DNA from: Candidatus Obscuribacterales bacterium | Lineage (GTDB): Bacteria; Cyanobacteriota; Vampirovibrionia; Obscuribacterales; Obscuribacteraceae | Length of the DNA stretch: 64,000 bases | Direction: 5' to 3' | Assembly: GCA_965228855.1 (NCBI GenBank) | Contig: CBDDIJ010000002.1 | Coordinates: 1,440,001-1,504,000 of the forward strand | Part shown: positions 2,605-51,408 of the stretch, in pieces | Position numbering within the stretch: position 1 is the first letter of the stretch | Layout: each line of letters starts with the position of its first letter | Notes under the pieces: model-generated | The model's input: only the letters and a program-made list of their open reading frames with translations | What the model was told of the DNA's origin: nothing | Database searches by the model: none | Made by a program: the position numbers and the translations under genes

Positions 2605-3654
2605 ATGAGTAAGCTAACAAACGCCACTAAGGACTCGATGACCGAAACTGGGATGAGCCGTTCAACTTCCGGCGACGAGCTGCAACAGGCCGCGATTCAA
2701 ACATTCGATCTATGCAAGTCGTTTGGTGATCGGCAAGTAGTCGACCATCTCAATCTCAAGATCTATCCCGGTGAGCTTTATGCATTGCTGGGCGACAACG
2801 GGGCAGGCAAAACCACCACCATCGGAATGCTGACCACGCTACTCAAGCCGACGTCAGGGACATTTTCGATTTGCGGATTTGACGGGCGTAAACAGCCGGA
2901 GAAGGCCAAGGGCATGTTCGGGATAGTGTCCCAGGACATAGCCATTTATCAGGAATTGACTGCTTATGAAAATTTGAAATTTATCGCTGACTTGCATGGT
3001 ATCAAATCCGGTATCGCGAACGAGCGGATAAAGGACCTGCTTCAGCGTGCGGGCTTGACGGACAGGGCGCACGATCGTGCCGGCGTTTTCTCTGGTGGCA
3101 TGCAGCGCAAGTTGACGATTGCAGGAGCTCTCCTGCACTCACCCAGAGTCCTGTTTATGGATGAACCGACAGTCGGGCTCGACCCAGCCTCGCGGCGCCA
3201 AATCTGGGAGTCGCTAAAAGAATTTCGCGCGATGGGCGTGACTATTTTGCTGACGACGCATTACCTGGAAGAGGCGGAACTGCTCGCCGACCGCATCGGC
3301 GTTTTCCGAGAAGGGCGACTGGTCGCGGAAGGCACCATCGAAGAGCTTCGCCATCAGATACGTGGAATTCGCGGAATCGCGGTGCGCCTGACCGAGTGGC
3401 ACGATAGCGAGCGAATCGAAAAGATGATGGCTGAAATTCGCACTCTGTTCGGAGAAGCGAATTTCGACCATCTGCGAAATACAATCAATCTTTCACAGCC
3501 TGGTGATGGAGAGCTGGTCAACACCCTGCAGCGCGTCCTCGCCTGGCTCTCAGACAACAAGATTTCGTTCTCACGATTTGCGACCAGCGAACCGACTCTG
3601 GAAGAGGTTTTTCTTGCCATCTCCACCGATGCGAATCAAGGAGGGGCGGTTTAA
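2605..3654 (+). CDS. ABC-2 type exporter ATP-binding subunit (DrrA/NodI-like)
   Basis: Walker A GDNGAGKTT, signature FSGGMQR, Walker B LFMDEPTVGLDP, TTHYLEEAE, C-terminal PTLEEVF. Start uncertain. Confidence 0.93.
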   Translation: MSKLTNATKDSMTETGMSRSTSGDELQQAAIQTFDLCKSFGDRQVVDHLNLKIYPGELYALLGDNGAGKTTTIGMLTTLLKPTSGTFSICGFDGRKQPEKAKGMFGIVSQDIAIYQELTAYENLKFIADLHGIKSGIANERIKDLLQRAGLTDRAHDRAGVFSGGMQRKLTIAGALLHSPRVLFMDEPTVGLDPASRRQIWESLKEFRAMGVTILLTTHYLEEAELLADRIGVFREGRLVAEGTIEELRHQIRGIRGIAVRLTEWHDSERIEKMMAEIRTLFGEANFDHLRNTINLSQPGDGELVNTLQRVLAWLSDNKISFSRFATSEPTLEEVFLAISTDANQGGAV

Positions 3655-43671: not shown

Positions 43672-43760
43672 AATCCAAAGATACTAGCAGAGAGCGAGTA
43701 TTATGCCACTGCGTGTTCGCACATATCTTGTACATTCCGTTATAGGCTTCGGCTGAAAAA

Positions 43761-43866
43761 TCTTATGGAGCCTTGCGGAACAAGCGCTTCCACCAGGGGA
43801 GTGCTAAAAACTCTTATGGAGCCTTGCGGAACAAGCGCTTCCACCAGGGGAGTGCTAAAAACTCTT
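43761..43866. repeat. Exact 51-bp tandem duplication of a gene 3' end
   Basis: TCTTATGGAGCCTTGCGGAACAAGCGCTTCCACCAGGGGAGTGCTAAAAAC at 43761-43811 and 43812-43862, plus TCTT. Confidence 0.95.
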
Positions 43867-45934: not shown

Positions 45935-48091
<2,157 letters not shown>

Positions 48092-48620: not shown

Positions 48621-48716
48621 GTGATGCTCGGTCCCGGTTCTGTCCGGTTCTGCCCGGTGATGCTCGGTGTTGTCCGGTGATGCTCGGTGCTGTCAAGTGA
48701 TGCTCGGTGCTGTCCA
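48621..48716. repeat. 20-bp tandem repeat GTGATGCTCGGTG(C/T)TGTC.. (3 copies plus a partial) with 10-bp sub-periodicity
   Basis: Copies start at 48657, 48677 and 48697; partial copy at 48621. Confidence 0.85.
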
Positions 48717-48766: not shown

Positions 48767-50055
48767 GCCTGCGTTTTTGATTGCAATTTTTGCAGCAAAA
48801 CCTGCAAACAAGATTGCAAGCCTCGATTTTAGCCTCGGAAAGGAGGCTTTTGAGCTTGAAAATACTGCGCCTGCAAACAAGATTGCGGTGTTTGCAGCAA
48901 AACCTGCAAACAAGATTGCAAGCCTCGATTTTAGCCTCGGAAAGGAGGCTTTTGAGCTTGAATATACTGCGCCTGCAAACAAGATTGCGGCTTTTGCAGC
49001 AAAACCTGCAAACAAGATTGCAGCCCTCGATTTTAGCCTCGGAAAGGAGGCTTTTGAGCTTGAAAATACTGCGCCTGCAAACAAGATTGCGGCTTTTGCA
49101 GCAAAACCTGCAAACAAGATTGCAGCCCTCGATTTTAGCCTCGGAAAGGAGGCTTTTGAGCTTGAAAATACTGCGCCTGCAAACAAGATTGCGGCTTTTG
49201 CAGCAAAACCTGCAAACAAGATTGCAAGCCTCGATTTTAGCCTCGGAAAGGAGGCTTTTGAGCTTGAAAATACTGCGCCTGCAAACAAGATTGCGGTGTT
49301 TGCAGCAAAACCTGCAAACAAGATTGCAAGCCTCGATTCTAGCTTCGGAAAGGAGGCTTTTGAGCTTGAAAATACTGCGCCTGCAAACAAGATTGCGGCT
49401 TTTGCAGCAAAACCTGCAAACAAGATTGCAGCCCTCGATTTTAGCCTCGGAAAGGAGGCTTTTGAGCTTGAAAATACTGCGCCTGCAAACAAGATTGCGG
49501 TGTTTGCAGCAAAACCTGCAAACAAGATTGCAGCCCTCGATTTTTAGCCTCGGAAAGGAGGCTCTTGAGCTTGAAAATACTGCGCCTGCAAACAAGATTG
49601 CGGCTTTTGCAGCAAAACCTGCAAACAAGATTGCAGCCCTCGATTTTAGCCTCGGAAAGGAGGCTTTTGAGCTTGAAAATACTGCGCCTGCAAACAAGAT
49701 TGCGGCTTTTGCAGCAAAACCTGCAAACAAGATTGCAGCCCTCGATTTTAGCCTCGGAAAGGAGGCTTTTGAGCTTGAAAATACTGCGCCTGCAAACAAG
49801 ATTGCGGTGTTTGCAGCAAAACCTGCAAACAAGATTGCAGCCTTCGATTTTAGCCTCGGAAAGGAGGCTTTTGAGCTTGAAAATACTGCGCCTGCAAACA
49901 AGATTGCGGCTTTTGCAGCAAAACCTGCAAACAAGATTGCAGCCCTCGATTTTAGCCTCGGAAAGGAGGCTTTTGAGCTTGAAAATACTGCGCCTGCAAA
50001 CAAGATTGCGGTGTTTGCAGCAAAACCTGCAAACAAGATTGCAGCCTTCGATTTT
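48767..50055. repeat. 102-bp tandem array, 12 full units plus one partial
   Basis: Units start at 48791, 48893, 48995, 49097, 49199, 49301, 49403, 49505, 49608, 49710, 49812, 49914 and 50016 (partial); degenerate lead-in from about 48767. Confidence 0.97.
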
Positions 50056-50256: not shown

Positions 50257-51408
50257 ATGGACCAGGTACTTTTATCTCTTAAAAAACGAGTGGTCGTGCC
50301 GCTCATAATCGTTGCCGGTTGCTGTGCCTGGCTTATTCTCTGTCACGCTCACTATAAGAGCTACTGGTTCGGCACCATTTACAGGGTGCAAACAACTGAT
50401 TTCAACTTGTTGCACCATGTGCTGCCGCAGACGTTGTCTCAGATGATCATTGCCGGACGCGTCGACCTGATTCAAGAGACCCTGGACTCGACATTTGGAT
50501 TGTTCGGACTGGTGATCACGGATCCTTCCGGAAAGACCGTACTGTGGAAAACAGGCAAGGTCTATCATCGCGAATCTTGGCATCACAAGGCATCGCCGAA
50601 TTTGCTCAAGCTGGAAGATGAGCCCTTTGACCTTTTGACCAATCCTGTGGAGCTGGAGCCGCTCTATGCGCACGCTTCACCGCGTTCGATGCATGCAAAG
50701 CAGTTGCGCCAGCCTAAAGGTCAGGTCCTCGGCAGGCTTTATTACCTGCGAGCCGACCCCCCGGCGTTCTGGACCGATATGAAGAGTTTTCTGACGGGCG
50801 GTTTCTGGGAGGTCTCCGGAGCCAAGCGCGGATATTTATATGTAACGCTCAGCGTCACCGCGTTCTGTTTGGTGATTCTGCTGGTCTTCTGGTTGCGCAG
50901 ACGCAGTATCGAATTGAAACAGCAGGAGCTGGAGAGTGCCGAGCGAGAGTTGGAAATTCGCAGAAAGGCGCTTGAGCACTTGTCGAACGAGCTGGCTGCG
51001 CAAAGGTCGAGAAAGGTTTGGCTCGAAAAAGAAGCCGACCAGGCTTACCGACGTTCGTTGCGGTTAAAGCAATCGCTCGAAAAACTGCGCGATTCGATTC
51101 TTGGAATACCTTCCGGTCAAGAACAGTCGACGACCGGTGGCAATCAGCCGCTCCGGGTGCGCCCACCTGCCCATCCATCCAGCTCGATACTCGAAGAGAT
51201 CGAATCAATCTTGCCTGGTTTGAATGAGAACGCGAAGGTCTTGCGCCATCAAGCAGGCGTACTGCATGACTACTGTTCGACCCTGGAGCAGCGTCAACAA
51301 GAGATGCAGCGCATCGTAGACAACGCGTACAGTCAGACGATGGGACCGGCGCAAATGCCGCCTGCTCAAGCATCTCAAGCAGAGACGATAGATATGCGAC
51401 CACGGTAA
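50257..51408 (+). CDS. Hypothetical membrane protein (TM, extracytoplasmic domain, TM, coiled coil)
   Basis: Two hydrophobic segments flanking about 160 aa, then a long coiled coil. Confidence 0.8.
   Translation: MDQVLLSLKKRVVVPLIIVAGCCAWLILCHAHYKSYWFGTIYRVQTTDFNLLHHVLPQTLSQMIIAGRVDLIQETLDSTFGLFGLVITDPSGKTVLWKTGKVYHRESWHHKASPNLLKLEDEPFDLLTNPVELEPLYAHASPRSMHAKQLRQPKGQVLGRLYYLRADPPAFWTDMKSFLTGGFWEVSGAKRGYLYVTLSVTAFCLVILLVFWLRRRSIELKQQELESAERELEIRRKALEHLSNELAAQRSRKVWLEKEADQAYRRSLRLKQSLEKLRDSILGIPSGQEQSTTGGNQPLRVRPPAHPSSSILEEIESILPGLNENAKVLRHQAGVLHDYCSTLEQRQQEMQRIVDNAYSQTMGPAQMPPAQASQAETIDMRPR

Follow-up and report, generated by a model that had tools for sequence, protein, structure and literature searches.

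A dispersed double-palindrome repeat in an Obscuribacterales genome, likely bound and spread by a cognate PLD nuclease-HTH protein

The 102-bp tandem array in the window (the whole 64,000-nucleotide stretch of DNA that was analysed) belongs to a non-coding double-palindrome repeat family dispersed over 11 loci of its genome (G000), and a PLD-HTH nuclease gene about 445 kb away is paired with the family. Neither the other loci nor this gene formed part of the original prediction. The reading that we judge likely, if by no means assured, is that the array is a non-autonomous element bound and spread by the cognate PLD nuclease-HTH protein. The repeat family is dispersed, has a fixed geometry, clusters near the origin and lies adjacent to the gene, and the pairing of gene and motif is genome-specific. 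This nuclease-repeat pairing is a real, undescribed system, known from sequence and model, and it is probably a new kind of self-spreading element.

The tandem array itself was borne out. TRF gave a period of 102 over positions 48788-50055, with 12.4 copies at 96% match, and the 17-nt sequence R that had been noted earlier occurs in exactly 25 copies whose spacing alternates between 33 and 69. PWM scoring gave a better register of 13 modules of 51 bp each, from 48769 to 50044. Each module consists of an 18-bp dyad, 15 nt and a second 18-bp dyad, the dyad being CTGCAA-N6-TTGCAG and the pitch 33 bp; the 12 linkers in the array are 51-52 nt each. The unit variants listed in the original prediction were all present, including the additional T near 49545, as was the C-to-T change in unit 6, which keeps a G-U pair. 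The features of the window are:

45935..48091, minus strand: left flanking gene, 718 aa, kept in the genus where the array is absent; outside the element
48769..50044, no strand: whole array of 13 double-dyad modules at a 102-bp pitch (one of 103), the largest of the 11 loci in the genome
48769..48819, no strand: module 1, with a degenerate first dyad, an eroded array end
49075..49125, no strand: typical 51-bp module, with a 15-nt spacer containing a T-tract and an A-tract between two 18-bp dyads
49126..49176, no strand: typical 51-nt linker, carrying a terminator-like hairpin that is broken in the sister genome G007
49994..50044, no strand: module 13, the last, followed by about 11 nt of linker-like sequence
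48769, 48871, 48973, 49075, 49177, 49279, 49381, 49483, 49586, 49688, 49790, 49892, 49994: module starts
50257..51408, plus strand: right flanking gene, 383 aa, found in 8 of 8 genus genomes; outside the element

Read depth over the collapsed unitig was 103 (run X1) and 123 (run X3), compared with 12-16 in the flanks. Thirteen modules predict a 7.96-fold depth and the observed depth matches this value, which argues against an assembly artefact, with the qualification that the two runs may be the source sample of the assembly and the agreement is not independent.

The left flanking gene, which we presumed to resemble MshEN, gave no MshEN match against Pfam at E<=0.05, so that this label of the original prediction was not confirmed; the only matches were to DUF4388 and DUF2949, both below cut-off. 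Segments of RLGxLL type recur in it, along with a poly-Q run and QTGQH repeats of 9 aa. The right flanking gene had no Pfam match. Directly left of the array is a 10/20-bp microsatellite (48640-48715) with about 6 copies here and 15 in G007, and it was not seen in other aligned members of the genus. Elsewhere in the window, a 51-bp tandem duplication (43752-43866; 2.3 copies, 96% match) lies at the 3′ end of a 347-aa gene.

A genome-wide BLAST of the unit, as the original prediction had proposed, together with TRF turned up other arrays with a period of 102-103 bp in G000, with relatives mostly lacking the array. By PWM scoring the family comprises 46 modules at 11 loci. No locus consists of a single module; every one has at least two, at a pitch of 101-103 bp. 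The pattern exceeds chance: real modules scored 42-74 versus a best score of 2.8 in shuffled contigs, and CTGCAA-Nx-TTGCAG was found 58 times in the whole genome at x=6, whereas the count for any other x between 0 and 12 was 0-4. According to rough ORF calls, the 11 loci fall between unrelated genes.

When the 14 loci of G000 and G007 were compared, the half-sites and the T and A tracts of the spacer were nearly invariant. Linker length was 51-52 in all 14 and linker sequence was locus-specific, with one clearly homologous linker pair at non-orthologous loci (z=10). Between the two genomes, the dyad cores differed at 2 of 144 positions and the linkers at 19 of 307. Three G007 arrays were missing from the orthologous sites of G000, in genomes that are about 95% identical, and at all three empty sites 190-1000 bp of unrelated DNA replaced the array. 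Comparison of filled and empty sites revealed no target-site duplication and no fixed ends, and the end points in the linker varied. A MITE or IS-derived element was rejected on these features at 3 of 3 empty sites. Similarly, capture of local flanks at fixed cut positions was unsupported because the overlap between linker and flank ranged from 0 to 51 nt.

The gene that is paired with the family lies on the same contig as nine of the loci:

G000 C2:1042621-1043481, minus strand: cognate PLD-HTH gene, 287 aa; outside the window

This gene sits between arrays at C2:1040793 and 1043743, one of them 261 bp upstream of its start and the other about 1.7 kb downstream, and a 95%-identical metagenome copy of the gene has the same upstream array. 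Pfam identified PLDc_2 (below cut-off) and HTH_3 in the protein. Residues H102, K104, D109, G116, S117, N119 and E128 and a CxxC motif were invariant in 23 of 23 aligned homologues. The protein has the features of a Nuc/BfiI-type enzyme, namely HxK(x4)D(x6)GSxN, a downstream Glu and a PLD fold; we take the motif and the Glu to map onto the corresponding residues of Nuc. Structural matches of a model of the protein (pLDDT 81.9) included the chromatin protein TrmBL2 as well as Zucchini, NucT and Nuc. The dN/dS values of the gene were 0.14 and 0.11, and the intact catalytic set is under purifying selection. The PADLOC Mokosh models MkoB and MkoC matched 21-23 of the 23 family members, which suggests kinship between the nuclease domain and a defence module. 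No methyltransferase was recognised in the neighbouring ORFs, two downstream ORFs having been scanned against Pfam.

Of 107 order genomes, 30 had matches better than E 1e-40 over most of the profile, some of them as many as 10 copies, and 19 further genomes matched mainly the PLD part; no homologue was found in 250 other genomes of the phylum. The family is large, with 340 clusters at 50% identity (E<=1e-30), some PLD-only matches included, and three of ten sampled clusters had organism names, all of them Obscuribacterales HTH proteins. In G051-G065, G017 and G023 the same PLD domain occurs within open frames of about 900-965 aa. Longer homologues of 365-402 aa (P0009, P0014, P0017, P0019 and P0029) have two matched stretches and possibly carry a second HTH or PLD domain.

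We predicted that the dyad pair adjacent to each homologue would be dispersed in that homologue's own genome only. Four of the 73 homologue loci had too little upstream DNA, leaving 69 upstream windows, and a strong double dyad was defined by a score of at least 22 of 24 and a pitch of 30-35. Strong double dyads were found in 15 of the 69 upstream windows, compared with 2 of 65 windows on the downstream side and 2 of the 300 ORFs that served as controls; 1 of 150 other C2 genes had a double dyad. The remaining 54 homologues with upstream sequence had no strong double dyad. The gene-proximal module was mostly about 190-470 bp upstream.

Ten motifs were then each tested in five genomes (candidates L091, L093, L101 and L102 were left out). 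In eight of the ten tests, on motifs that were chosen by visibility, include kin that are not independent and in two cases lie downstream of the gene, the dyad pair adjacent to the homologue, different from the one described here, was dispersed in the home genome. Counts in the home genome were 64 and 17 in G013, 53 in G049 (overlapping matches), 15 each in G043 and G010, 5 in G005, 3 in G077 and 2 in G086. In the other two tests (G069 and G006) the motif occurred beside the gene alone. Reversed patterns gave 0 in all tests, and unrelated controls had none. Outside the home genomes, matches were limited to G087 (three), which belongs to the genus of G086 and has a matching gene, and G002 (one), where the G006 gene has a clade-mate. 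The minimal unit of G013 was again module-linker-module (33+38+33). On a quick tree of 73 rows, related proteins had related motifs (L035/L038; L109/L028). Despite similar half-sites, the G000 and G013 proteins showed no visible resemblance in their HTH helices, and two of the five G000 paralogues had no dispersed upstream repeat.

From these patterns we infer that the PLD-HTH protein binds, cuts and mobilises the repeat. Each module is a predicted pair of binding sites for the cognate HTH. XRE-HTH dimers would bind each dyad on double-stranded DNA, with two dimers per module across the A/T-tract spacer; recognition of the duplex is suggested because the half-sites and A/T tracts, and not hairpin pairing, are conserved. 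Single-HKD domains would dimerise to form a Nuc/BfiI-type active site able to make nicks or cuts close to the sites. The module-linker-module unit would then be copied into new intergenic sites by break repair or by transesterification and strand transfer. According to the accessible parts of the sources, BfiI, a PLD-family enzyme, cuts via a covalent intermediate and is capable of transesterification (PMC2475615; PMC2853115), so that joining by the PLD-HTH protein would be chemically plausible. Unequal recombination would expand and homogenise each array, here to 13 modules, and both the interspersed variants and a triple-dyad unit present in G007 fit this step. In addition, the array copy upstream of the PLD-HTH gene may double as its operator. 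We extend the proposal more tentatively, as something just short of likely, to a class of Obscuribacterales mobile DNA in which a PLD-XRE-HTH nuclease mobilises its own double-palindrome repeats, each of hundreds of variants having its own site.

Restriction-modification controller (C) proteins and HipB-type autoregulators use a double-operator logic. The protein studied here resembles them in having an XRE HTH and, upstream of the gene that encodes it, paired palindromes, but its HTH is C-terminal to a fused nuclease and its sites are copied to 3-64 places per genome. An unlikely alternative is of the operator and decoy kind: the protein would repress its own gene via the dyads, and the dispersed arrays would titrate a potentially toxic nuclease, as part of an addiction or defence module whose antidote is DNA and whose copies are spread by host recombination and kept by selection. 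The position of the gene-proximal module in most cases and the lack of target duplication at empty sites are consistent with this alternative. So are the matches of the HTH to HipB-like and restriction-modification control-protein models and of the PLD domain to Mokosh and DrmC, all of which were below cut-off or partial. However, sinks are not required, since some genes have an adjacent site alone and most have none. Moreover, the two cognate motifs downstream of their genes are not expected of operators, and the fixed length of the module-linker-module unit is left unexplained.

G000 has its GC-skew turn near C2 0.8 Mb, with dnaA located at C2:793 kb. Nine loci are on C2, within 0.7 Mb of dnaA, and two are on C5, the end of which would adjoin the beginning of C2, since both are covered by contig C4 of G007; C3 (3.76 Mb) has no family locus. 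Of the 950 large gaps, 271 are in origin-proximal bins, and ten of the 11 loci fall in these bins (p=3e-5, post hoc). The arrays share this confinement to a replication domain with parS- and matS-type sites, but not the lineage-wide conservation of site and binder, which extended to 2 of 107 genomes. The motif was found in just these two order genomes, the two that have this PLD-HTH protein clade, and six of the seven other genus members had the same flanking genes and no array at the site. A conserved centromere role is unlikely because those six genus members lack the array at this site and 105 of the 107 order genomes lack the motif. The earlier idea of a locus with many protein-binding sites is supported in outline. 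In a strict-pattern scan of 185,579 genomes, arrays were confined to one Obscuribacterales genome; among eight other loci, in unrelated phyla, and one viral locus, none had a 102-bp array or lay within 2.5 kb of a PLD-HTH gene.

The clustering of the loci, the A/T-tract spacers and the structural match to TrmBL2 would also suit a domesticated protein that anchors, compacts or segregates the origin from phased arrays. We consider such an organiser quite improbable, as only two sister genomes have the motif and the gene clade, loci have been gained or lost between genomes of about 95% identity, the catalytic residues are invariant, and a sister repeat family clusters in the same zone. Furthermore, the period is 102, 70-72 or about 62 in different families, so there is no common phasing, and universal helical phasing of the long period was rejected.

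We give as little credence to coincidence, in which selfish repeats are moved by another enzyme (an IS110 recombinase or host repair) and PLD-HTH genes share variable intergenic zones with them. Four of the 11 arrays have a copy of the sister family at a distance of 105-427 bp, which makes these gaps hot spots. In contrast, coincidence would not explain the excess of strong double dyads upstream of the homologues over the downstream side of the same genes and over other C2 genes, or the way in which motif relatedness tracks protein relatedness. A Y1 transposase (PF01797) had 0 matches in G000, which is 95% complete, whereas 6 of 14 control genomes were positive.

A multimeric ncRNA or repeat protein is very unlikely: a hairpin and U-tract are present in every G000 linker and long stop-free frames run across the array of the window, but of the 9 linkers in the orthologous G007 array 8 have a broken stem and just 1 an intact one, no reading frame is open at all loci, and the period is 103 bp at several of them. 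At 3 of the 11 loci every one of the six frames is closed, and a 34-aa coding repeat was rejected. The ncRNA or terminator option of the original prediction also failed on folding, with z=-1.1 for the unit, and on covariation, the pairing of the spacer arms being at or below the expectation from base composition in 46 distinct G000/G007 modules and 44 distinct G013 modules. Rfam gave sub-threshold matches alone, none near the gathering score. A CRISPR array, which the original prediction had correctly discounted, was rejected because the linkers are near-identical within the array and not unique spacers.

The closest parallel among known systems is to REP, BIME and REPIN sequences with their RAYT (TnpA-REP) enzymes. 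In the available parts of the sources, these are short extragenic palindromes that occur dispersed and in tandem clusters with a doublet as the apparent minimal unit, and a single-copy enzyme gene is flanked by its own repeats, with several such pairs per genome (PMC3116915, PMC8266576). Here, too, dispersed and clustered palindromic doublets flank one cognate enzyme gene. In contrast to RAYT, as those parts describe it, the enzyme here combines a PLD/HKD nuclease with an XRE HTH and is not an HUH Y1 transposase. GTAG was found within 8 nt of the module end in 1 of 45 modules, and any of four tags in 11 of 45, none of them fixed. Conservation of half-sites and A/T tracts also differs from selection for hairpins in single-stranded DNA. 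Judged by these features, the array family is not a RAYT system, although it would work in a REPIN-RAYT-like way. The REP/BIME-like option raised earlier therefore survives as far as dispersed palindromic doublets are concerned and fails on the Y1 enzyme and GTAG that define RAYT systems.

Neisserial NIME/dRS3 elements, in the part of the source available, have 6-bp inverted arms round a variable centre, variable spacers and dynamic arrays, and are proposed recombinase sites (PMC1797815). The repeat described here shares with them the conserved 6-bp inverted arms round a variable centre that alternate with spacers in arrays. It differs from that description in sequence (not ATTCCC-N8-GGGAAT), in its fixed 33-bp and 102-bp geometry, in linkers that are uniform within an array instead of diverse RS spacers, and in being paired with a chromosomal PLD-HTH gene and not with a phage recombinase. 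Compared with BfiI, Nuc and Zucchini, the protein has in addition a C-terminal CxxC and an XRE HTH, and its candidate sites, which are long and rare, form arrays in the chromosome of the host itself.

To our knowledge, repeat and IS systems of bacteria have mobilisers of the DDE, HUH, serine, tyrosine or DEDD type. The literature searched, with most subscription journals and all supplements outside its scope, describes no PLD-HTH-paired repeats and no PLD-family mobiliser, and PMC8987985 contains no mention of PLD or RAYT. If mobilisation by the PLD-HTH protein is correct, this would be the first PLD-fold transposase-like enzyme described within the literature found, and a PLD nuclease with a covalent phospho-histidine intermediate would be new chemistry for the spreading of DNA. 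The homologues would then form a natural library of metal-independent DNA cutters or joiners with long sites, for which the roughly ten protein-motif pairs offer a ready swap panel for recognition and cutting. The proposal is also relevant to the unsettled matter of how REP-like repeats originate and persist, as the same logic would have been reached with an unrelated enzyme. DNA arrays that serve as a nuclease antidote, should the decoy alternative hold, would be unusual as well.

Several further observations concern the origin region of G000. Over C2 0-1.1 Mb, GC content is 0.54-0.63 compared with 0.50, and there are about 1.6 times more large gaps. G000 is flagged as 5.8% contaminated, so that part of the first 100 kb of C2 and C4 may be foreign. 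The sister repeat family, an approximately 50-bp double dyad, has 70 of its 81 pattern matches in C2 0-1.2 Mb, and one copy is upstream of the paralogue at C2:103086. At the metagenome locus (L045), no downstream array was seen in the 5.3 kb examined, and a sister-family-like copy, read by eye at about 2990-3050, lies in that downstream gap. Upstream of a third paralogue (L037, G000 C2:66400-67200; also L036) is a 57-bp inverted-repeat module mixed with 38-bp tandems; this module had 15 BLAST matches, all in C2 0-400 kb. A 16-bp near-palindrome, TAAACCGATATCGGTT, which we guess to be a parS-like site, was counted 28 times over the two strands together and is among the commonest non-simple 16-mers of G000.
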